NCBI GenBank assembly: GCA_963718565.1
Contig: OY970364.1
Span: forward strand, 128,001-192,000
DNA from: an uncultured Verrucomicrobiae bacterium
GTDB lineage: Bacteria > Chlamydiota > Chlamydiia > Chlamydiales > Rhabdochlamydiaceae
Length of the DNA: 64,000 bases
Direction: 5' to 3'
In this document: piece after piece, positions 2,020 through 64,000 of the stretch
Position numbering within the stretch: the first letter of the stretch is position 1
How the letters are laid out: each line of letters opens with the position of its first letter
Program-made: the position numbers and the translations under genes
Notes under the pieces: model-generated
Databases searched by the model: none
Seen by the model: only the letters and a program-made list of their open reading frames with translations
Told to the model about the DNA's origin: nothing

Positions 2020-3687
2020 TTAATCGTCGCCGAATGTGAAGGCGTAGGCGCGGATGTCTTTAGGTACTTTTAGCGAGAGCAAATGACGGCCATAGGATGT
2101 ATTGATGATTCTGTATTCTCGATCTCCATTGATAGAGATACTGCCGTAGAAATTGCCATCTATAGTGACCTCAAGCGGAATGGGGCTCGATCCTCCCAAA
2201 ACAAGGTAGACGTGCGCAGCTAAGAAATTCAGATCTAGATAGCTTGCGTCGCTTGTTGCTACAATATACTGTCCCTCTACCTGCCACTCGCCTTTTAGTC
2301 CGACCTGATCTTCGCCGAGTGGTTCTGTATAGCGGTAGTCTGCCGATTTGTCTGGCGTGATGCGCATCGGATAGCTGTGGCCCCTGTCGAAGCCCAGGTA
2401 TGTTTCTACAGTAAGGGGTCTACTCAGCCTTGTTGGTTCTTGAATTTCGACCGCAGGGATGTTCAAAAGCTCGCGAATGGCCTTTTCAGTTTCGGCATAG
2501 GCGCCTTCTCCAGAGTGTACCATGCGAATATTGCCTGCCTGATCGATCAGATAGTGCGCTGGCCAATAAGAGTTTTCATAAGCTCTCCATGTGGCATAGT
2601 TGTTATCCATTGCTACGGGATAGGTGATCCCGAATTGAACAGTGGCTTTTTCGACATTATCGTAATTCTTTTCAAACTCAAACTCAGGTGTGTGCACTCC
2701 AATAATCACAAATCCATAATCCTTATAATCGCGATACCAGTTTTTGAGATAAGGAAGGGTTCTAATGCAGTTGATGCAGCTGTATGTCCAGAAATCGATG
2801 AGGACCACTTTTCCGCGTAGTTCTGACAAAGTCAGCCGCGGTGAATTGATCCAAGCGGTAATGCCTGAGAGTTCAGGTGCAGGACCATTTTCAGGTAGCT
2901 CTTTATGCTTGTTGATCTCCCCAAGTTTTTCTTCGACATGGAAGTTTTTTTCGGAAATGATTTCAGGGAAAATTTGTGAGAGTTTCTCATTGATGAGCAT
3001 GTCCCAATTCAGTGTCAGAATAAGTGCAAAGACCACCATTAGAACACCAAATACTTGGCGAATACGTTCGGTATAGCGAGACAAAAATTGCGAAGAGCTC
3101 AAGATTTTGGCGCTCCCATAGGCATAGATGAGCATAATCGCCCCTGCCCCAATGCTGTAGGACACTGTCATCAAGACTGCAGTGAAACTGATCGAACCTG
3201 TGGCAGCAAGTGCTGTGATGGCGCCTAAAATGGGACCTGCGCAAGGCGTCCAAAGTAGGCCCAATGCAGCTCCAAATAGCATCCCTCCTCCAAAACCTTG
3301 CTGGGGTCGCTTGCTTTGGATTTTTTGGCCGAGGCTTGCAATCGGAGTTGTGACTTTTGCAAACCAGTTAGACAGCTTCGGGAAGATCATCACAAGACCA
3401 AAGAAAAATACAAGCGCAATGGCAATATATCGGAGAATGCTCGGAGAGATCCCCGTTTTGTGTACAAGCCAGGAAAGGGCCAGCGTAAAGAATGAAAAGC
3501 TGCAAGTCAGGCCGAGAATAGTGCCTAGTGGTCTGAGGCGCCCTACGGCTACACCTGCTGACAGAATCGCAGGAAGCACGGGCAAGATGCATGGCGAAAG
3601 CGCCGTAAAAATCCCAGCGAGAAAAGAAAATCCAAGCAGCAGAAGCATATTCTGCATACTAACCTGAGTTGCAACATTTAAATCCAT
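2020..3687 (-). CDS. dipZ: Cytochrome c biogenesis protein DipZ (CcdA/DsbD transmembrane domain + thioredoxin + C-terminal domain); true start may be 3657 or 3648
   Basis: LSPCILPVLP and WTPCAGPIL motifs; DFWTYSCINC thioredoxin motif; GVHTPEF. Confidence 0.88.
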   Translation of the reverse strand: MDLNVATQVSMQNMLLLLGFSFLAGIFTALSPCILPVLPAILSAGVAVGRLRPLGTILGLTCSFSFFTLALSWLVHKTGISPSILRYIAIALVFFFGLVMIFPKLSNWFAKVTTPIASLGQKIQSKRPQQGFGGGMLFGAALGLLWTPCAGPILGAITALAATGSISFTAVLMTVSYSIGAGAIMLIYAYGSAKILSSSQFLSRYTERIRQVFGVLMVVFALILTLNWDMLINEKLSQIFPEIISEKNFHVEEKLGEINKHKELPENGPAPELSGITAWINSPRLTLSELRGKVVLIDFWTYSCINCIRTLPYLKNWYRDYKDYGFVIIGVHTPEFEFEKNYDNVEKATVQFGITYPVAMDNNYATWRAYENSYWPAHYLIDQAGNIRMVHSGEGAYAETEKAIRELLNIPAVEIQEPTRLSRPLTVETYLGFDRGHSYPMRITPDKSADYRYTEPLGEDQVGLKGEWQVEGQYIVATSDASYLDLNFLAAHVYLVLGGSSPIPLEVTIDGNFYGSISINGDREYRIINTSYGRHLLSLKVPKDIRAYAFTFGDD

Positions 3688-3991
3688 TGCGATCTTTAGG
3701 CGAGTTGCATAACTGTTGCTTTAGGATGCTGACTAGGAACTTACGCCAGAGATGCTTTGGCCTTTGTTAATTTAAGAAAGGGTCTTGTGGAGGTTTGGAT
3801 CTGAATCAAAATCATATGTCTGTGCCAGAAAAGTTAATTTTAGCAGGGGCAAGTTGTTAAAATAGGAGCATTTTGATAGAGTAATAGTTGTTTGGTTTAT
3901 AAGAACTTATGACGTATGATGTTAATATTCTGGGTCAGAGAATGTTAAATCCATAGAAGGAGGGAGTTAAAATGGTAGAGCCTGTATTCAA

Positions 3992-4031
3992 GTACGTCCT
4001 CAAAAACCTATGGCAAGCACTGAATGTCATT
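3992..4031 (+). repeat. Truncated copy of the palindromic element at 19819
   Basis: 40 bp identical to 19819-19858 (GTACGTCCTCAAAAACCTATGGCAAGCACTGAATGTCATT). Confidence 0.9.
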
Positions 4032-4051
4032 ACTCCTCGCCAGCAGAAAAT

Positions 4052-4163
4052 CACAGAGGTCACAGAGGGGGAAATTCGGGCCTAATGCTTGATGGACATC
4101 AATTGCTGCGCCAATGATTTTATCCGTTAAGGTATTTTGGGGTCCCCCTCTGTGACCTCTGTG
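4052..4163. repeat. Inverted repeat CACAGAGGTCACAGAGGGGG / CCCCCTCTGTGACCTCTGTG (REP-like)
   Basis: Perfect 20-bp arms at 4052-4071 and 4144-4163. Confidence 0.85.
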
Positions 4164-53728: not shown

Positions 53729-54808
53729 TCATTCCTTGTCGCTCTGGGTTTCTAGCCGTTGCTTTGCATGCTCAATTGCTTTGTTCAGTTTCTCTCGGAG
53801 AACTGCTTTGGAAGGTAGGGCAGTCAAATATTCGGCAACGTGGATGCCGGCTCGATCGAGTTCAAGGAGTTCGATCTGCTCACTTTGTTTGCCGGTGCAG
53901 AGAATAAGTCCCAAAGGAGGATGCTCCTCAGGCTGGCGCTCATATCTGTCGAGCCAACGAAGGTATAGTTCCATTTGTCCTTTGTGTTCAGGCTTAAAAT
54001 CTCCGAGCTTTAATTCGATGGCAACCAATCGTTTTAGTTTTCTATGGAAAAAGAGGAGGTCGAGGTGAAAATCTGTGTCATCGATAGTCATCCGTTTTTG
54101 ACGAGCAAGAAAGCAAAAGCCTATTCCTAATTCTAGTAAAAACTGTTCAAGCTCTCGCATGATCGCATCTTCAAGATCCTTCTCAATGTACCGATCATCG
54201 AGTTTCAGAAATTCAAGCACATAGGGATCACGAAAGACGAGGTCAGGTGAAAGTTGGTCTTCTTTGCGGAGGGCATCGATCTCAGCTTGAGCAACCAGTT
54301 CTGGACGTTTTGACAGTGCTGTTCTTTCATAAAGCATCGAGTCGATTTTTTTGCTTAAGGTCCGAACATTCCACCGTTCGATTCGGCACATCTCGGCGTA
54401 AAAATCGCGCTTGATAGCATCCTTGATCGGAATGAGTAACCTGAAATGGGACCAACTTAATTGGTGGGTCAGCGACAAAATGACTTGCTGGTCAGGAAAG
54501 ACTTCAGCGAACTGTATCATCCGATGTAAGTTCTTCTCCAAGAACCCTTTGCCATAATCTGCCGTCAATTGTCGCCACAGTGTGGCGACAATCTTTTTCC
54601 CGTATTCGGCACGTTCATCCTTAGGGATTTCTTTGCTGATGCGAGCTCCTACATGCCAGTACAGTAAGGTTAACCCAGCATTGACCGTGGACGCGATTGA
54701 CTTGCGGGTCTGATCGATCATGTGCCGCAGATCTTCAAGTAAAGCAACTGGGACGGTCGTCACGAGTGCCTGGGGCTGCGGAGGGGTGAGTGATGTTTGA
54801 GGATTCAT
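53729..54808 (-). CDS. DUF1016/YhcG-family nuclease
   Basis: Start MNPQT overlaps the integrase stop (ATGA); LSWSHF, RDPYVLEFL, LDLLFFHR, AIELK. Confidence 0.9.
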   Translation of the reverse strand: MNPQTSLTPPQPQALVTTVPVALLEDLRHMIDQTRKSIASTVNAGLTLLYWHVGARISKEIPKDERAEYGKKIVATLWRQLTADYGKGFLEKNLHRMIQFAEVFPDQQVILSLTHQLSWSHFRLLIPIKDAIKRDFYAEMCRIERWNVRTLSKKIDSMLYERTALSKRPELVAQAEIDALRKEDQLSPDLVFRDPYVLEFLKLDDRYIEKDLEDAIMRELEQFLLELGIGFCFLARQKRMTIDDTDFHLDLLFFHRKLKRLVAIELKLGDFKPEHKGQMELYLRWLDRYERQPEEHPPLGLILCTGKQSEQIELLELDRAGIHVAEYLTALPSKAVLREKLNKAIEHAKQRLETQSDKE

Positions 54809-55879
54809 AGAGAGTCTCCTTTGAGGATTTGGTCTGAGATTTGATTGCTGAATTGTTTTGTGACTTGGACATCCATGTGGGTGTAATGGAGCAGCATCGC
54901 TAGGGTGCGATGGCCTGTGGCAGTGGCCAGTTGGAGGTTGGAGGCGCCTTTTGCAGCGGCGTAAGTACAGAACGTATGGCGCATGTCGTGGGCTCGGCAA
55001 TTAGTGATATTGGCTCGTTGGAGGGCTTGCTGCCAAGCTTTCTTGATGTCGATTCGTCCGAATGCTGTTTTGCTGGCAAAGACGAGAGGTTTTTGGGGAT
55101 TTCGTCTCTTTGTAGAGGCATTGGAGTTCTTCGATGACGGGATCGCAGAGGGCGATGCTGCGGGGACGGCCATTTTTGGTTTCTTTGATGTAGGCGAGTT
55201 TGTTGTTGAAGTCGATATGTTTCCATTCGAGATTGAGAATTTCGCCTTGGCGGGCTCCTGTAGTAAGCGAAAGAAGGATGATGCAATAGAGGTAAGGGGA
55301 TTTGCTTCTTCGGGAAGCGGTAAGAAGGCGTGTGATCTCGTCTTCAGAAAGGACGCGGTCTCGGCCGGGGTTTTCTTTGAGTTTCATGAGGCGCAAGCGC
55401 GGGGTTTTCGCTGATCCAGCGGAGCTGGAGGGTGGCATAAGTGAGAAGGGAGGAGAGCGAGGCCATGTAGCGATTGGTAGTGGCAGCAGTTCGTTTAAGA
55501 CTTCTGTTGTGTGGGAGTGTCGGTGAGGAATTGCCGTTCCTTACCTAGCAGTTCGGGGGTGATGTGGACAAGGCCGTAGGAGCCAAGGCGTGATTTCCAA
55601 TAGTTGAGGTGGCGGAGAGTGTCATCGGCAGGAGCGATGATGTTCGAGTGCGCCGTCTTGGATGTAGCGTTCTGTGAGTTCGGCGAAGGTACGGATTTGA
55701 TTGTGTTGGTCAAATTTGAATTGACCGGCTTTGATTTGTCGTTCGACGTTTGAAGCCCAGTCATCGGCTTCTTGCTTGCGTTCGAAGTGATTGCAGACAG
55801 TAGGGTAGCCTTTGATGCGGACGACAGCGCGCCAGACGGTGGTGCCGTTTTCATTTTTGCGTTTGAAAATAGATGCCAT
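54805..55879 (-). pseudogene. Tyrosine integrase with multiple frameshifts
   Basis: Segments MASIFKRKNENG, TTNRYMASLS, TGARQGEI/TKNG, HDMRHT/TGH/HY in different frames. Confidence 0.88.
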
Positions 55880-56047
55880 GATTCCAACCTCATGTTTTGA
55901 GAGATTTAGTTGGTTGGATGGCGCTGCTGGTTAAGATTATTCTTTGTTGCACCGCCATTGCACCGTGCGGCTACAATTTAAACTTGAACTTGATATTCGT
56001 TCAAGTTAATTGTGCGCAAGTGCAATGGAATGTGCTGGTTAAGAATG

Positions 56048-56094
56048 TGGGGCAAGCAGGACTTGAACCTGCGACCAGCGGGTTATGAGTCCGC
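56048..56094 (-). repeat. att site: 3' half of tRNA-Ile2/Met (CAU)
   Basis: Reverse complement GCGGACTCATAACCCGCTGGTCGCAGGTTCAAGTCCTGCTTGCCCCA: anticodon arm, T-arm and acceptor 3' strand; no 5' half. Confidence 0.88.
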
Positions 56095-56229
56095 AGCACC
56101 CGCGCCACTTCCCAGCAGCTAACTGCCCAGAATCATAGCGGAAAGCGCTCCTTTCCATCCATCGCGAACTATCGCCACTTATCGCGCTTTTTTGCATGCT
56201 AGTGGTCCACAAATGGTCCACAGAAAGGC

Positions 56230-57950: not shown

Positions 57951-59276
57951 ATGCTGATTCGATTTTCAATTGAAAATTGGATGTCCTTCCAAACCAAAGC
58001 CACTTTCTCGCTGATAGCAAGCCGTGAGCGTCAACATGGGGAGCGCATCCCTAAAATAGGCAAACTCAAACTCGGGGTTCTGCCTGTTGCGGCCGTATAT
58101 GGAGGGAATGCGTCCGGAAAAACCAATCTTTTTAAGGCCCTGCATTTTGCAAAAGGACTGATCGTTAAAGGGACCCAACCCTACAGCCTAATTGCTGTAG
58201 ATAGTTTTAGGCTTGGAAATGCACAAAAGGTCGAACAGCCAGCCCAGTTTGAGTTTGAACTGCTAATCGACGAGACGGTTTATGCATTTAGTTTCTCTGT
58301 TAACCGCAAAACCATTTTAGAAGAAAAATTGGTTCATATTTCTGGTAACAGCGAAAAGACTCTTTATCATCGAGTATCAGGAGAGCCTAATTTCGATTCA
58401 TCTTTAAAGAGTGACCAATCGCTCCAGTTTGCTTTCAAAGGCACTCGCGATAATCAGCTCTTCCTCACTAATTCAGTTTCTCAAAAAATAGATGCCTTCA
58501 AGCCAGTGTACGACTGGTTTAAAGATACATTGGAGCTGATCGCGCCTGATTCAAGATTTGAACTTTTTGAGCAATTTTTGGATGAAGGACATCCTTTGTA
58601 CGCAACGATGAATAAGATGTTGTCCCAATTAGATACTGGAATATCTCATCTTGGCGGTGAAGAAATTCCATTTGAAAATTTACCGCTGCCCGAACCGATA
58701 AAGATGAAGTTAAGAGAAGAATTGGCAGAAGATGCGACTGTCAGATTATTAGCCGAACCTGGGAATGAGCGTTTTGTCGTAACTCGAAAGAATGGCGAGT
58801 TAATCTCAAAAAAACTGGTCACCTATCATTTAAATTCTGATGGTTCAGAAACGAAGTTCGATATGAGACAAGAATCGGATGGTTCTCAACGTGTTATCGA
58901 TCTTCTTCCCGCTTTTTTAGAGCTATCTGCAGCTCAATCCAAAAAAGTCTATGTCATCGATGAAGTAGACAGGAGTTTACATACATTGTTGATCAGGCGT
59001 CTTCTAGAAGGCTATCTGGCAAAATGTTCTCATAATAGTCGCTCTCAGTTACTATTTACCACTCACAATGTGTTATTGATGGATCAGGATTTACTCAGAC
59101 GAGATGAAATGTGGATTGCAGAACGAAATGCGGAAGGGGTTTCCAGCTTGCTGTCTTTCAGCGAATACAAAGATGTGCGCTATGACAAAGACATTCGAAA
59201 AAGCTATCTCCAAGGACGCTTAGGAGGTATTCCTCGCATTCTTCTACAATCTCCCATCGAAAACCATACACAATGA
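57951..59276 (+). CDS. RloA-like AAA_21 (AbiEii-type ABC) ATPase
   Basis: [42 protein letters not shown]. Confidence 0.85.
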
Positions 59277-59349: not shown

Positions 59350-60650
59350 CAGGGCCATTTAACTAAAAATTTTTGATACCAGATCAGCTAAGATGGCATA
59401 ATAAATTCCTCAAATTTGGAGGACCTATTATGTCACGCCGTAAGCCAATCGACGCCACAATCCTAGAAGCTAGTAAGAATTTTGATGCCCGTGTATTCGC
59501 GGAAACCGTCAAGGGAGAGTTTGCAGATTTCCCTGATTATCGACGTAATCAAAAACGTGTCTTATATCCAGTTTGGTATTTGACTCTTGTTATTCTCTGC
59601 GGATTCTTTTGTGGATGCAATACGATTGAGGAAATCGCTGAATATGTTTCTCTGCAGGAGGAGTGGTTTTCTTCTCTGCTAGGTGAGGAGCTCTCAGCAC
59701 CTTCCCATGGAGCGCTCTGGTGGTTTTTAGTGAAAACACCCCCTGGTGCGCTCAAGCACTACTTGCAAAAATGGTTCAGCAAAATTCCTGCTTCATTGCG
59801 CGATCAGCTATTGGCGATCGATGGTAAACGGATGAAAGGCGCAAATTTCCTAGGCGGTGTCACACACGTAGTGGAGCTATTCGCAGCGGAGGATCGATTA
59901 TGTCTTGCCGTGGAAAAGGTCCCAAATAAAACAGTCGAAAAGAGCACGTTACCAATCATTTTGGAGCAAGTGAATGTAGAGGGGGCGATTATTTCAGGAG
60001 ATGCACATTTCACCGTAGCCGAATCGGCAGAACAAATCGTTGATGCGAAGGCAGATTATCTGCTGGCTGTTAAGGACAACCAGCCAACGCTGTGCGCTGA
60101 AATGGAGAATTTTTTTGATCAAGCTCACGCAGTCGAATGGGAGGAAGTCCCCCATTCGTTTCACCAGGAAGTAGATAAAGGCCATGGTCGAATCGACATT
60201 CGAGAAGTACGAGTCGTCGAGGACCTGGACTGGTTGCCAAATGCGGGCAAATGGAAAAACTTAGTCTGTCTCATCGAAGTAAGGTCCACGAGGCAAAAAC
60301 TTGGATCTACTGCCAATGAGGTATTTAGACGGCTATATATTTCGAGTCGTCGAGCATCTGCCAAAGATTTTGCTAAATGGACCCGACAGCACTGGAGCAT
60401 AGAAAACAAATGCCATTGGGTAGCTGATGTGATTTTTGAAGAGGATTATGCATTGACGGATAGAGGGAATAGTGCGGAGAACATGGGGTTGTTTCGACGT
60501 TTGGCTATGAACATGGCTGCAGTTGTAGATCCAGAAAGGGGGCTCGCCTCCGTAAGGCGCGCAGCAACTTTCGGTGGTGGGTACTTAAAGGGAATTTTGG
60601 CAACATTTTTCTGTTCGAAAATGTCAAAACATTTTAGTTAAATGGCCCTG
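59350..60650 (+). mobile_element. ISAs1-family insertion sequence
   Basis: Perfect 19-bp TIR CAGGGCCATTTAACTAAAA / TTTTAGTTAAATGGCCCTG; no TSD. Confidence 0.92.
59430..60641 (+). CDS. ISAs1 transposase
   Basis: LAIDGK, ISGDA, VKDNQPTL, KGHGRID.R, RQHWSIENK.HW..DV.F.ED. Confidence 0.95.
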   Translation: MSRRKPIDATILEASKNFDARVFAETVKGEFADFPDYRRNQKRVLYPVWYLTLVILCGFFCGCNTIEEIAEYVSLQEEWFSSLLGEELSAPSHGALWWFLVKTPPGALKHYLQKWFSKIPASLRDQLLAIDGKRMKGANFLGGVTHVVELFAAEDRLCLAVEKVPNKTVEKSTLPIILEQVNVEGAIISGDAHFTVAESAEQIVDAKADYLLAVKDNQPTLCAEMENFFDQAHAVEWEEVPHSFHQEVDKGHGRIDIREVRVVEDLDWLPNAGKWKNLVCLIEVRSTRQKLGSTANEVFRRLYISSRRASAKDFAKWTRQHWSIENKCHWVADVIFEEDYALTDRGNSAENMGLFRRLAMNMAAVVDPERGLASVRRAATFGGGYLKGILATFFCSKMSKHFS

Positions 60651-61026: not shown

Positions 61027-61203
61027 AGAAGAACATATGAAAATTGAAAAAGTAGATACTCCTGCTGCGGGAACATGGGCACGGGATTGTGAGCTGTTAT
61101 GCCTATCTGATTGCAAAGGCTTTAAAATAAGGTACCACAGAGACGAAGATGATACTTACTGGAGTCTGCAATGCAAGGGGATTGTAGCATATAAAGTAAT
61201 GGG

Positions 61204-63121
61204 GGCTTGTAACAGAATCCATTGAACTTATTCAAACCTGATTATATATTATCAGAATGAACAAGTTTTTAAGCATTCAGGAAGCAGCAAAATGTTTGGG
61301 AGTTTCTCCACAAACACTCCGCCGATGGGAAAGACAAAAGAAAATCGTTCCCTGTCATCGCATACAGGGCGGCCAACGCCGCTATAGTCTCACTCAGTTA
61401 CAGCCATTTAATTGCGGAGATAAAACCTCTGATCGTCTAACTGTTGCCTACGCAAGAGTTTCGAGTCATGATCAAAAAGAAGATTTACAACGACAAGTCC
61501 ATATGTTAGAAATTTACTGCTTTGCAAAAGGATGGGTGTTTTCGGTAACCAAAGACCTCGGTTCCGGGATGAACTATAATAAACGTGGGCTAAAACAACT
61601 GCTTGAGCAAAATGGTTCAAGAAGCCATAAGAACAAACAGCTTTTGGCCAACCTTCAAAATGCGGTCGCCAATGTCTAAAGAGAATCTGGTTCTTAAGCT
61701 GGGAATTGAAGCAGACCCTCAAACAATTTCTGAGCTCGATGGGCAATCGCGGATCTGTAATTGGCTTTATAATCATCTGCTAGAAAAAAGCCTGGAACTC
61801 AAGCGGGAATTTATCCATTCCGGCAACCCGGAGGCATCAAAGACCCTCTATACAGAAAGAGGACTCAGAAATGAACTTCCAAAACTCAAGGAAGAGCACC
61901 CCTTTCTAAAAGTCGTCCACTCTTCTCCATTAAAAAATACCGCTTTGAGACTTAGTGAAGCAATCCGGGTTCATCAAAAATCAAAAAAAGGAAAACGGAA
62001 AGGCAAACAGATGGGTTGGCCCAAATTTCGGGCCTGGAAACGGGACTGGTTTTCTCTTTTTTACGATGAACCAGAAAAAGGTTTCAAGATTCACGGCAAA
62101 GCCTTGTTCCTCTCCCTTGGAATGGGCCAGGACCGCAAGCGCCGCTTCCTCACTCTCGAATTACCCGAAGCACATCTCCTCAAAGACAAAACCCCACGCA
62201 ATTTGCGCATTATCTCCGAACTGGGAACCTACTATGCCATTTTTACCATTCAGAAAGAACTCCCCATCCGAAAACCCATTTCTAAAATCCTCGCACTCGA
62301 TCCCAATCACAAAAATCTCGCCTATGGTGTTGACACAAGTGGAACAGCCATTGAGATTGCATCTCCTCACTGGCTCAAAACTTACGATAAACGCCTGGAC
62401 GAACTAAAAAGTAAAAGAGACCGCTGTGATAAAAAATCTAAAAAATTCCATGTTCTGGATGAAAAAGGCAATCCCACAGGAAAAGAATTCCATCTTCCTT
62501 CCAGGCAATGGAGAAAATACGATCATGCCCTAAAAAGCGCACTGCGTAAACGCCGAGAACAGACCAAGACGTTTATGTTTACAAGCGCACATCGCCTTTT
62601 CCGAAATTACGACTGCATTGGAATCGGAGACTATACACCAAATGGCGAAGGCATTACTAAACCAATGCGGCGAGCGATGAATAACCGATCCTTGATTGGA
62701 CGTTGGAAAAACACCCTCTCCTGGGTAGCTCGAAAATCGGGAAAAACCTTTATTGAATTCGACGAGAAAGGGACAACCCGGACCTGTAGCCACTGCCTGC
62801 GGATTGAAGAGCGGGGAATCCCTGTCTCATTGAGACAATGGCAATGTCCACAGTGCAAGACCGTTCACATTCGCGACGAGAATGCCGCAATTAACGGCTT
62901 GAGAAAGATCTTGCGAGATCTTTCAGCAAAAAATGAAGGAGGATATCCTTCAATAGTGTCTGGCTCAGACCTCGCTTTTATCCAAAAGCGATGGGCCTGG
63001 TGTGTTTTGCCTAATGGTGTACATGTGACACCGTGGGGGCAAGACAGCAAAGCAATTTGCAGCACCAGGAAATTAAACCGAGGGCATGATAGCCCTCGAT
63101 CAAAAGTTGATAATTTGGTTA
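61204..63121 (+). mobile_element. IS607-family element (right end interrupted by IS630)
   Basis: Serine-recombinase TnpA + TnpB; G-run at the approximate left boundary. Confidence 0.85.
61257..61679 (+). pseudogene. tnpA: IS607 TnpA serine recombinase with internal deletion
   Basis: MerR-like HTH; YARVSSHDQKEDL; GSGMNY; jumps from LKQLLEQ to GSRSHKN with no DRL..FG segment. Confidence 0.85.
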
Positions 63122-63156
63122 TATACTCTAGAAAATTGAAGTCTGGAGAGGATTGA
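61672..63156 (+). CDS. tnpB: TnpB RNA-guided nuclease family protein (IS607), rearranged RuvC; last ~11 codons come from IS630
   Basis: CNWLYN HTH; WPKFR; RuvC-I ILALDP; IGIGDY; DEKGTTRTCSHC; CPQC; RDENAAIN. Confidence 0.88.
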   Translation: MSKENLVLKLGIEADPQTISELDGQSRICNWLYNHLLEKSLELKREFIHSGNPEASKTLYTERGLRNELPKLKEEHPFLKVVHSSPLKNTALRLSEAIRVHQKSKKGKRKGKQMGWPKFRAWKRDWFSLFYDEPEKGFKIHGKALFLSLGMGQDRKRRFLTLELPEAHLLKDKTPRNLRIISELGTYYAIFTIQKELPIRKPISKILALDPNHKNLAYGVDTSGTAIEIASPHWLKTYDKRLDELKSKRDRCDKKSKKFHVLDEKGNPTGKEFHLPSRQWRKYDHALKSALRKRREQTKTFMFTSAHRLFRNYDCIGIGDYTPNGEGITKPMRRAMNNRSLIGRWKNTLSWVARKSGKTFIEFDEKGTTRTCSHCLRIEERGIPVSLRQWQCPQCKTVHIRDENAAINGLRKILRDLSAKNEGGYPSIVSGSDLAFIQKRWAWCVLPNGVHVTPWGQDSKAICSTRKLNRGHDSPRSKVDNLVIYSRKLKSGED

Positions 63157-64000
63157 GTTCAATTGTTTGGAAATTGTCGTTAATTCGCTTTTTCAGCATG
63201 TCTTTTAAATTAATAACGCCAGTGTTGAAAAAATCTCTAATTTTCTCAGTAAATTCATTGAATTTTGAATACAGTGTATTATAAGTAACACACTCTCTCA
63301 TAACTTTCCATAAACGCTCAATAGCATTCAAATTTGGGGAATACGGAGGTAAGTAGTGTATTTGAATTTTGGTTTGGCTATCCAAATATTTTTGCACTTC
63401 CTTATTCTTGTTTGATCTGCCGTTGTCTAAGATTAAGTGGATTTTTTTTGCATCTGTATTAGCCGCTAACGTTTGGAGAAAATCGACCGCACTTGCAGCA
63501 TCCACAGTGCTATATTCCTTCGTCACGACTTGCATTGCAGTCAATTCAATGGCACCAATAAAATGCAATCGCTCTTGCTTAGCGGTTGTTCCTAATGTCT
63601 TTATTTCGTTTTTTAGGATCCACCCAGCCACAGACTGGCTCTGATACTCAGGGTGTACAGCATCTCCAAAGAAAATTTTCTCGCCTTCTTGGAGACCGGC
63701 TTTCAATTCATTGTATTTTTTAAGGAACGCAGCTTGTTTTTCGGGATCGAGCTTTCCTGGTACTTTGATTGGATGTTTATAAACAAATCCATGCCTCTTC
63801 AACCAATTTGTCATACCAGCCACAGTGTATTTCACTTGATATGCGTCTAGAACGTAGAGACAAATTTTGCTCATTTTGAGATACGTTATTTGACTCAAAT
63901 GTCTCCTCAGCGCATCTTCTTGGTCTAGGGTTAACTTGGAGGCCTTTCCCAAATGTGGATCATTGATAGTTTTTTGCTTGGCATCGTATTCTCTTTGATA
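63128..64000 (-). CDS. IS630-family transposase (5' end outside the window)
   Basis: FFGDAVHP, ILDN, LPPYSPNLNAIERLW; frame open to the window end. Confidence 0.92.
   Translation of the reverse strand, partial: YQREYDAKQKTINDPHLGKASKLTLDQEDALRRHLSQITYLKMSKICLYVLDAYQVKYTVAGMTNWLKRHGFVYKHPIKVPGKLDPEKQAAFLKKYNELKAGLQEGEKIFFGDAVHPEYQSQSVAGWILKNEIKTLGTTAKQERLHFIGAIELTAMQVVTKEYSTVDAASAVDFLQTLAANTDAKKIHLILDNGRSNKNKEVQKYLDSQTKIQIHYLPPYSPNLNAIERLWKVMRECVTYNTLYSKFNEFTEKIRDFFNTGVINLKDMLKKRINDNFQTIELNPLQTSIF

Follow-up and report, generated by a model that had tools for sequence, protein, structure and literature searches.

A crippled IS607 element in a Chlamydia-like bacterium very probably carries a TnpB with a relocated RuvC-II glutamate and an omegaRNA in the 3' end of its gene

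We analyzed a stretch of 64,000 nucleotides (the window) from contig OY970364.1 of assembly GCA_963718565.1, assigned to an uncultured Verrucomicrobiae bacterium that GTDB places in the Rhabdochlamydiaceae, in which a transposable element of the IS607 family carries a tnpB gene. Taken together, the evidence makes it very probable that this is an IS607 copy in a Chlamydia-like, probably intracellular bacterium, that its TnpB is of the type with an alternative RuvC-II glutamate and is accompanied by an omegaRNA of ~201 nt, that the protein belongs to a bacterial clade with the RuvC-I signature D-x-N-H-K-N and not to the Fanzors or pro-Fanzors, and that the copy in the window is crippled. The original prediction, which was made from the letters of this DNA, had pointed to the same rearranged active site and had considered the element, if its host is a protist-associated intracellular bacterium, a plausible bridge lineage toward the Fanzor nucleases of eukaryotes and giant viruses.

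Results

The tnpB open reading frame (ORF) lies on the plus strand at 61672..63156 and translates in the window to 494 aa; the native protein has 488 aa, which is also the modal length of its homologues. The RuvC-I motif D210-P211-N212 (62299..62307, +; D210 codon at 62299-62301) was found within ILALDPNHKN (residues 206-215). Gly319 (62626..62628, +), within CIGIGDYTP (residues 315-323), falls in the column of the canonical RuvC-II Glu, presumably E278 in ISDra2 TnpB, when the protein is aligned by HMMER with ISDra2 TnpB and with an AI-designed TnpB. The alternative RuvC-II glutamate, Glu365 (62764..62766, +), lies within IEFDEKGTTRTCSHC (residues 361-375), 46 residues past Gly319 and six before C372-x-x-C375 (E365-KGTTRT-C372), and is followed by a zinc finger defined by its conservation in homologues (C372-x2-C375 ... 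C392-x2-C395; 62785..62856, +) and by the RuvC-III residue D402 (62875..62877, +) in RDENAA (residues 401-406; CPQC...RDENAA, 392-406). The motifs on which the original prediction rested, namely D-P at RuvC-I, the change of Glu to Gly, a Glu 46 residues on and RDENAA, are all present where it had placed them. In 121 homologues that share at least 61% identity, the residues D210, P211, N212, G319, E365, C372 and C375 were each conserved in 121/121 and D402 in 118/121. An alignment of 42 rows reaching down to 25% identity still showed invariant D210, G319, E365, C372, C375 and C392, and in 65 distant rows (27-92% identity) the canonical-Glu column held Gly in 64/65 and the alternative-Glu column held Glu in 64/65. 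Because the motif residues are invariant or nearly so in the 121 homologues, the pattern is, as judged from these alignments, under selection, and chance is excluded. The D-E-D triad of RuvC and the C4 zinc finger that mark a TnpB are therefore both conserved, with the Glu at its alternative position. In Pfam searches, the protein matched PF07282 (Cas12f1-like TNB) at 55.6 bits (cut-off 26.3), and PF01385 (OrfB_IS605) at 25.5 bits, which is under the cut-off of 30.5.

The family profile aligned over nearly its full length with the mimivirus Fanzor2 ApmFz2 (PDB 9b0l; 94.8 bits), and D210, E365 and D402 landed on D324, E467 and D501 of ApmFz2, with residues counted in the profile alignment. These three residues were defined as the catalytic triad of ApmFz2 by cryo-EM (PMC11832414), and the D324A and E467A substitutions were each reported to abolish cleavage (PMC10530073). 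The latter study also describes TvTnpB, a rearranged prokaryotic TnpB, as an RNA-guided nuclease that is active in vitro and depends on a target-adjacent motif (TAM). An AlphaFold2 (AF2) model of the TnpB had a mean pLDDT of 85.9, with low confidence only at residues 324-327, 422-427 and 457-494. In Foldseek searches the best match among solved folds was ISDra2 TnpB (8h1j; TM 0.84 by target length, E 2.3e-17), the match to ApmFz2 had a TM of 0.56 by target length, and the AF2 model and the Foldseek matches together showed the WED-REC-RuvC-ZF fold of TnpB proteins. From published models and from its alignment with a solved structure, Glu365 is predicted to lie beside both Asp residues in space. 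The TnpB is probably a nuclease that is active with a D210/E365/D402 site, and by its motifs the protein falls in the class of TnpBs with a rearranged RuvC domain, known as 'Ealt', 'TnpB2' or RIIr.

Past RuvC-III, the protein tails of the homologues diverge while the DNA stays conserved. In 28 elements, whose proteins share 47-90% identity, the conserved blocks extend from GTGYCTGGCTC as far as an invariant ...AGAGCGG, where similarity ends, and in all 28 this conservation continues past the stop codon. Nucleotide alignments and covariation defined an omegaRNA (reRNA) scaffold of ~201 nt that lies nearly all inside the tnpB frame, with the stop codon 18 nt before the right end; its 5' end is predicted near GUGUCUGGCUC, and the first 170 of its 201 nt occupy 62956..63125 (+) in the window. 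RNAalifold, run on 16 elements, yielded 59 consensus pairs in 8 helices. In this consensus 95.1% of cells were paired, compared to 84.4% in shuffles (0/500 reached the observed value), and 30 pairs had changes on both sides, compared to 17.5 in shuffles; sliding the partners by 1-3 columns reduced pairing to 40-49%. Two of the helices are long-range. The first (GCUC/GAGC, columns 8-11 with 204-207) is invariant and hence uninformative for covariation, and the second (columns 148-152 with 198-202) covaries. The original prediction had proposed that the tail overlaps the omegaRNA and that homologous elements be aligned to define the RNA and the right end; the alignment, once run, bore out the overlap and gave a covariation-supported scaffold ending at the right end ...AGAGCGG. 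An omegaRNA of the kind expected for a TnpB is predicted on these grounds for the family and for the seven intact copies of the element in this genome.

The reading frame gave a further view of the same region. A motif of the CAGGAAATTAAA type encodes RKLN in the window copy and QEIK in others, and over 34 distinct tails it was found in frame 0 in 15, in frame 2 in seven, in frame 1 in two and at or past the stop codon in 10. Residues 457-494 were predicted by AF2 to be disordered (pLDDT <50), which fits a distal tail driven by the RNA. Distant homologues retain the amino acid sequence of residues ~430-456 (...ERWAWCVLPNGV...PWG), which were predicted to form a beta-hairpin (pLDDT ~72-90). The proximal tail is likely under both protein and RNA constraint, and the distal part is likely RNA-driven. 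Rfam gave no match to the RNA of the element; in L002, an intact copy with its flanks, only a flanking tRNA was matched. In one metatranscriptome, contigs of a relative covered tnpA-tnpB, and a second contained one identical contig of 171 nt (L002 3132-3302).

Eight near-full-length copies of the IS607 element were found in the 2.28-Mb single-contig genome, differing from one another at 0-13 of 1955 positions, with tnpB open in all eight. Since the eight copies are open and nearly identical, they point to recent activity of the element. The window copy spans 61202..63125 (+) and begins with the left end GGGGCTTGTAAC, as determined by comparing the ends copy by copy; in the other seven copies the right end reads ...GGTTATATATGATCAGGTTTGATCAAGTTTTGAAGAGCGG, and the flanks diverge beyond it. 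The seven intact copies have GG at both ends (GGGGC... and ...AGAGCGG). A repeat search on the intact L002 revealed a 30-nt subterminal inverted repeat, 83% complementary, with its arms at element positions 24-53 and 1915-1944; the left arm lies at 61225..61254 (+) in the window. In relatives from other genomes, a 206-aa serine recombinase with a MerR-type helix-turn-helix (HTH) domain is encoded directly upstream of tnpB and overlaps its start. In the genome examined here, the full 206-aa tnpA is present in two copies, both without tnpB, and all eight full-length copies, each at a different site, have in common a 198-nt in-frame deletion in tnpA. The shared deletion at different sites means that the element spread once it had lost this part of tnpA, presumably with TnpA acting in trans, and we infer that the tnpA-deleted lineage must be mobilized in trans by the two copies with full tnpA. 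With a MerR-HTH serine recombinase in two copies and in relatives, GG ends and subterminal repeats, the element is assigned by its sequence features to the IS607 family. The element or close relatives of it were also detected in soil and freshwater metagenome contigs from public sequencing runs.

Shorter derivatives of the element were observed as well. An 893-nt derivative consists of the left end, tnpA and the last 206 nt, and another derivative keeps the last 204 nt. L014 (element position 489 joined to 1750) and L010 (651 joined to 1752) represent independent internal deletions, whose endpoints are no more than 2 nt apart and lie 3-5 nt 5' of the omegaRNA start. A solo right end of ~187 nt was located at G000:C1:888343-888529. 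A right end of ~205 nt seems to be the unit that is retained in deletion derivatives, and the overall arrangement looks like split labor, with tnpB copies that have no working transposase alongside a short transposase-plus-right-end copy that has no nuclease.

The window copy is damaged in its tnpA, in its right end and in the C-terminus of its TnpB. The tnpA remnant (61257..61679, +; 140 aa) still has its MerR-type HTH and the serine motif YARVSS, and matched Pfam MerR at 50.2 bits and Resolvase at 39.4 bits. The Resolvase match is confined to profile positions 2-58 of 145 because of the 198-nt in-frame deletion at 61611/61612, which removes 66 residues including ...KDRLLRFG... relative to the 206-aa tnpA of L014; as judged from this comparison, the window tnpA has lost its catalytic core. 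The predicted pairing of tnpB with an IS607 serine recombinase thus held as to the family, but the actual neighbor is this truncated remnant. Downstream, an IS630-family element, recognized by its Pfam domains, is inserted in the IS607 right end on the minus strand (63126..64000, on to ~64247 past the window). Its transposase ORF (63128-63952, -) matched DDE_3 at 98.1 bits and HTH_33 at 58.3 bits, and at least 13 further instances of this IS630 end were found in the genome. The insertion point is 63125/63126, where the right end of the IS607 element has a TA, and a DNA contig of run X1 has a loose end at the equivalent insertion position (L002 3425). The 31 nt cut from the IS607 right end reappear ~1.1 kb on, at about 64248-64278 (found in L001), and include the native stop codon, the arm of the repeat at the right end and the 3' strands of the scaffold; the right repeat arm would span 63116-63145 and is split by the insertion. 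As a result of reading into the inserted DNA, codons 485-494 (the last 10, from 63124) are non-native, with YSRKLKSGED* replacing YDQV*; the other seven full copies end in ...IYDQV* at 488 aa. At the RNA level, the insertion interrupts the loop of the final hairpin. The window scaffold thereby loses one half of this hairpin, the guide junction and, from each of the two long-range helices, the 3' strand. On this evidence the window copy is defective: it is predicted to provide no functional guide RNA in cis and not to be movable with its right end split. The slightly altered window protein might act with the omegaRNAs of the seven intact copies.

The published Fanzor fingerprint combines DPG at RuvC-I with the alternative Glu, and the pro-Fanzors, which are mostly cyanobacterial IS607 TnpBs, bear both (PMC10711439). 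Both regular expressions (regexes) given in that paper demand Gly as the third RuvC-I residue. The window protein has DPN, with N212 in 121/121 homologues, and fits neither. In the supplement of the same paper, the regex for the alternative Glu without DPG has 5053 matches among >140,000 TnpBs, and its Table S1 contains 12 DPNHKN strings, one of them in a protein very like the window TnpB. The replacement of Glu by Gly with a compensating Glu is described elsewhere as RIIr-5, the largest group of rearranged TnpBs (PMC10691335). Among the 65 distant family rows, RuvC-I read DPN in 44, DQN in six, DLN in four, DPG in three, DPH and DFN in two each, and DMN and DLG in one each, with two rows unalignable; the conserved signature is therefore D-x-N-H-K-N, in which Pro is not fixed. 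The original prediction had taken D-P, the change of Glu to Gly and a shifted Glu as the mark of the Fanzors and their closest kin, and this claim did not survive: the motif is DPN instead of DPG, the Pro is variable and the rearrangement is common.

Family membership was confirmed for 103/134 candidate stretches, which came from Chlamydiae, Chloroflexota, Bacillota, Acidobacteriota, Verrucomicrobiae, several proteobacterial classes, Meiothermus and others. Contigs labeled Chlamydiae account for 19/79 family loci, although the labels of metagenome-assembled genomes (MAGs) can be wrong. In IMG/VR, 0/46 candidate stretches were confirmed as relatives of the family. A plasmid collection yielded a single family member, at 41% identity, on a Cupriavidus megaplasmid; four other loci fetched from it encode canonical-Glu TnpBs, and the plasmid-collection matches included no cyanobacterial record. 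The Cupriavidus necator locus (L297) is a D-x-N member (LDETGTTRTCHVC, RDENAS) with a MerR-HTH ORF upstream and lies in an unannotated stretch. The DPG representatives P0135, P0136 and P0141 were considered as pro-Fanzors and rejected, because they nest within the D-x-N family and none of the names of their homologues is cyanobacterial, viral or eukaryotic.

The spacing of the window protein agrees with that of pro-Fanzors: the 152 residues from DPN to E365 fall inside the x(120,160) of the published regex, 16 residues separate the two CxxC pairs, and D402 comes 6 residues after the second of them. It departs from them in having DPN where they have DPG, and in the kinship of its TnpA, whose closest IMG/VR relatives (up to 67% identity) adjoin canonical-Glu TnpBs. 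The element lies on a bacterial chromosome, not in a eukaryote or virus, and alignment to ApmFz2 starts at residue 133 of the latter, so that the N-terminal extension with nuclear localization signal (NLS) of Fanzor2 is not represented. The protein is neither a Fanzor nor a pro-Fanzor.

A Fanzor anchor for phylogenetic analysis was sought by searching IMG/VR with an alignment of the family TnpAs. Among the TnpB-like ORFs listed beside those TnpAs, all of them on the plus strand, at least 280 aa long and matching the zinc finger, 0/57 had the alternative Glu. A giant-virus MAG (L283) had a gene on the opposite strand with SLDPGMRV, Gly at the canonical position, VDESYTSKTCGGC and RDINAARNIL, which by these motifs bears the Fanzor2 signature; among 120 listed homologues of its protein, DPG and the alternative Glu were found wherever the regex was readable (54/59). 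In L283, this Fanzor2-type gene (2188-3447, -, 419 aa) stands head to head with an IS607 tnpA (3492-4052, +); in bacterial IS607 elements, tnpA and tnpB are arranged in tandem. A zinc-finger/RuvC-III pattern was also tried on IMG/VR as a source of Fanzors and was rejected; it hit at least 111 stretches, and among the matches listed all were canonical-Glu phage TnpBs, which provided outgroups. A 95-aa fragment (L207) matched our regex by accident.

A tree of 118 rows and 410 columns was built by an IQ-TREE quick search under LG+G4 with SH-aLRT support. The D-x-N family formed a clade of 64 rows (support 99), with the lone DLG row as its sister (86), and the Fanzor2-type proteins formed a clade of 27 rows (support 100) on a stem of length 0.95. 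The DPG representatives were nested at two places within the D-x-N family; DPG variants arose independently inside it. The window protein sits deep in a chlamydial subclade. When this subclade was constrained to group with the Fanzor2-type rows, the log-likelihood (lnL) was worse by 56.7 and the p value of the approximately unbiased test (p-AU) was 0.039; the group was named after the tree had been seen. A special tie between the chlamydial proteins and Fanzors is disfavored; the deeper node, which joins the whole D-x-N clade to the Fanzor2-type clade, has a support of only 31. A phylogeny had been proposed with the original prediction as a check on whether the protein clusters with canonical TnpBs; in the tree the protein falls in the D-x-N clade, which is separate from the Fanzor2-type clade and its one viral anchor.

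With respect to the host, the genome encodes 4-5 TLC/NTT nucleotide transporters (e.g. G000:C1:1313062-1314528), compared to 0/14 control genomes. Transporters of this type are typical of energy-parasitic intracellular bacteria. Given their absence from the controls, an obligately intracellular lifestyle is likely. The closest relatives of the TnpBs of this genome are labeled Chlamydiae or Chlamydiales, and the host is likely an obligately intracellular, Chlamydia-like bacterium. The end of the window in which the element lies is a patch of mobile elements. Just upstream of the element, an AAA_21 ATPase (AbiEii-like family, 133 bits) is encoded at 57951-59276 and a DDE_Tnp_1 transposase with a DDE_Tnp_1_assoc domain at 59373-60641. 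Further upstream, the stretch from 54500 to 56000 has a GC content of ~0.51, compared to ~0.35-0.45 around it, and a strong positive GC skew of up to +0.39; Rfam gave no match here apart from a tRNA at 56048-56114 (-).

Discussion

The loss of the canonical RuvC-II Glu raises the question of whether the TnpB is catalytically dead and survives as a regulator or as decaying DNA. Such a reading would account for Gly at the canonical position, for an OrfB_IS605 score of 25.5 bits below the cut-off of 30.5, and for the broken omegaRNA and dead tnpA of the window copy. However, hundreds of proteins, some with as little as 27% identity, retain E365, D210, D402 and the four Cys, the essential E467 of ApmFz2 is the counterpart of E365 in the alignment, and the rearranged TvTnpB was reported to be active in vitro (PMC10530073); moreover, the genome maintains eight open near-identical copies and the family a covarying omegaRNA. 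We consider a dead TnpB very unlikely. It could also be argued that the long C-terminal tail serves only as a protein domain and that its nucleotide conservation is a by-product of coding, as residues ~430-456 are conserved in distant homologues and their predicted beta-hairpin has a pLDDT of ~72-90. This explanation can hardly be credited in the face of a predicted disorder of residues 457-494 (pLDDT <50), nucleotide motifs that persist in any of three reading frames and even after the stop, compensatory changes that back 8 helices, conservation beyond the stop to ...AGAGCGG in 28/28 elements, and deletion derivatives that retain exactly the last 204-206 nt.

A different question is how close these proteins stand to the Fanzors. 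The chlamydial IS607 TnpBs could be the closest bacterial kin of the Fanzor2 proteins of giant viruses and eukaryotes, passed on inside amoebae as a pro-Fanzor bridge. They share with ApmFz2 a Gly at the canonical Glu, an alternative Glu in E-x2-TT-x-T-C, Pro after the RuvC-I Asp and linkage to IS607; their host is probably intracellular, PMC10530073 speculates that Fanzor2 came from bacteria engulfed by amoebae, and DPN proteins escape both published regexes, which require Gly in the third position. Nevertheless, the RuvC-I motif is DPN instead of DPG with a Pro that varies within the family, the family is widespread in free-living phyla, none of the 46 IMG/VR candidates was confirmed as a relative, and the window protein is only 25% identical over 221 residues (32 bits) to P0374, the Fanzor2-type protein of the giant virus. 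Likewise, the family profile scores ISDra2 TnpB at 122 bits compared to 94.8 bits for ApmFz2, the Fanzor2 N-terminal extension is absent, and the TnpA of the chlamydial element shares 67% identity with TnpAs found beside canonical-Glu TnpBs, compared to 39% with the TnpA of the giant-virus MAG. In addition, the two clades stand apart in the tree, where uniting the chlamydial rows with the Fanzor2-type rows, a group named post hoc, carries the cost in likelihood given above. On balance, a chlamydial bridge appears quite unlikely; of the bridge lineage in an intracellular host put forward originally, the host half stands on the 4-5 TLC/NTT genes and the bridge half is disfavored (p-AU 0.039). 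A broader relation, in which the whole D-x-N-H-K-N clade is the nearest bacterial sister of the pro-Fanzors and Fanzor2, the Pro predates the split and the chlamydial branch, in amoebae that also house giant viruses, is one route of transfer, is in our view quite unlikely, with alternative-Glu lineages thinly sampled in the tree.

Several points weigh against our own reading of the element as a member of a bacterial clade apart from the Fanzors with its own omegaRNA. The node that unites the D-x-N and Fanzor2-type clades has a support of 31. The Fanzor2-type clade is anchored by one giant-virus MAG sequence, its other 26 rows being unnamed metagenome proteins, and the tree sample holds no named cyanobacterial pro-Fanzors and represents other alternative-Glu lineages by one DLG row. 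The RNA evidence is weak, as it comes from contigs of two metatranscriptome libraries only, and contigs as such give no information on RNA ends, strand or level.

Among known systems, the closest in active-site design are 'TnpB2' TvTnpB of Thermoplasma volcanium (PMC10530073), 'Ealt' (PMC10711439) and RIIr-5 (PMC10691335), which share the Gly and a Glu ~45-50 residues downstream and six before the zinc finger. These rearranged TnpBs are likewise described as transposon-borne with a 3' omegaRNA, and they differ in having D-hydrophobic-G or DPG at RuvC-I where the present family has D-P-N-H-K-N. ApmFz2 resembles the window protein in its aligned triad, in the Gly that replaces the canonical Glu, in the Pro that follows the RuvC-I Asp, in the TT-x-TC that precedes the zinc finger and in its IS607 context; in contrast, it has DPG instead of DPN, an N-terminal extension of ~130 residues with an NLS that is absent here, a viral instead of a bacterial host, and an omegaRNA reported to lie in non-coding DNA after the ORF (PMC10530073) instead of within it. 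The pro-Fanzors (PMC10711439) share the IS607 association and the alternative-Glu spacing, but have Gly as the third RuvC-I residue and mostly cyanobacterial hosts, compared to Asn and a Chlamydia-like host here. ISXfa1 TnpB of Xylella fastidiosa (PMC10711439) belongs to an IS607 element with a reRNA that ends at or past the GG-bearing right end, as here. The ISXfa1 reRNA is ~150 nt long, compared to ~201 nt here, and its pseudoknot between the 5' part and near-3' nucleotides recalls, by its description, the GCUC/GAGC pairing. ISDra2 TnpB (PDB 8h1j, 8exa, 8bf8) has the same order of WED, REC, RuvC and zinc finger and an omegaRNA overlapping the 3' end of its gene; it differs in its canonical RuvC-II Glu, its IS200/IS605 Y1 transposase and its length of 408 aa, compared to a serine recombinase and 488 aa here.

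In the mechanism that we propose for the intact copies, Gly319 would have replaced the canonical Glu, and Glu365, before the zinc finger, would complete a triad with D210 and D402. The omegaRNA would be transcribed from the tnpB 3' end and stop at the right end ...AGAGCGG, with the flanking DNA serving as the guide. By analogy with the TnpB family, TnpB may bind the right-end omegaRNA, recognize a TAM beside a target that matches the flank, and cut it. A cut of the emptied donor or of an unoccupied homologous site could then lead to restoration of the element by recombination after excision by TnpA, and such homing by TnpB would help the element persist. The GG core at both ends, considered together with the GGG TAMs reported for ISXfa1 (PMC10711439) and ApmFz2 (PMC11832414), is only a lead.

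The finding adds little in principle, as TnpBs with a relocated glutamate were described in 2023 and are abundant, and only the DPN signature and the split-labor deletion derivatives are mildly unusual. Chlamydiae are listed among the TnpB-poor phyla in PMC10691335, and our search of the literature on TnpB or IS607 together with Chlamydiae found no such element. The present analysis documents an active-looking IS607/TnpB family in Chlamydiae, and provides the ~201-nt omegaRNA, with the boundaries and helices that are needed for testing these 488-aa nucleases. The distribution of labor between nuclease copies and a short transposase copy offers a tidy natural case of its kind. Finally, a sizeable DPN clade with the alternative Glu escapes the motif filters for pro-Fanzors, so that these filters are no census of the family.

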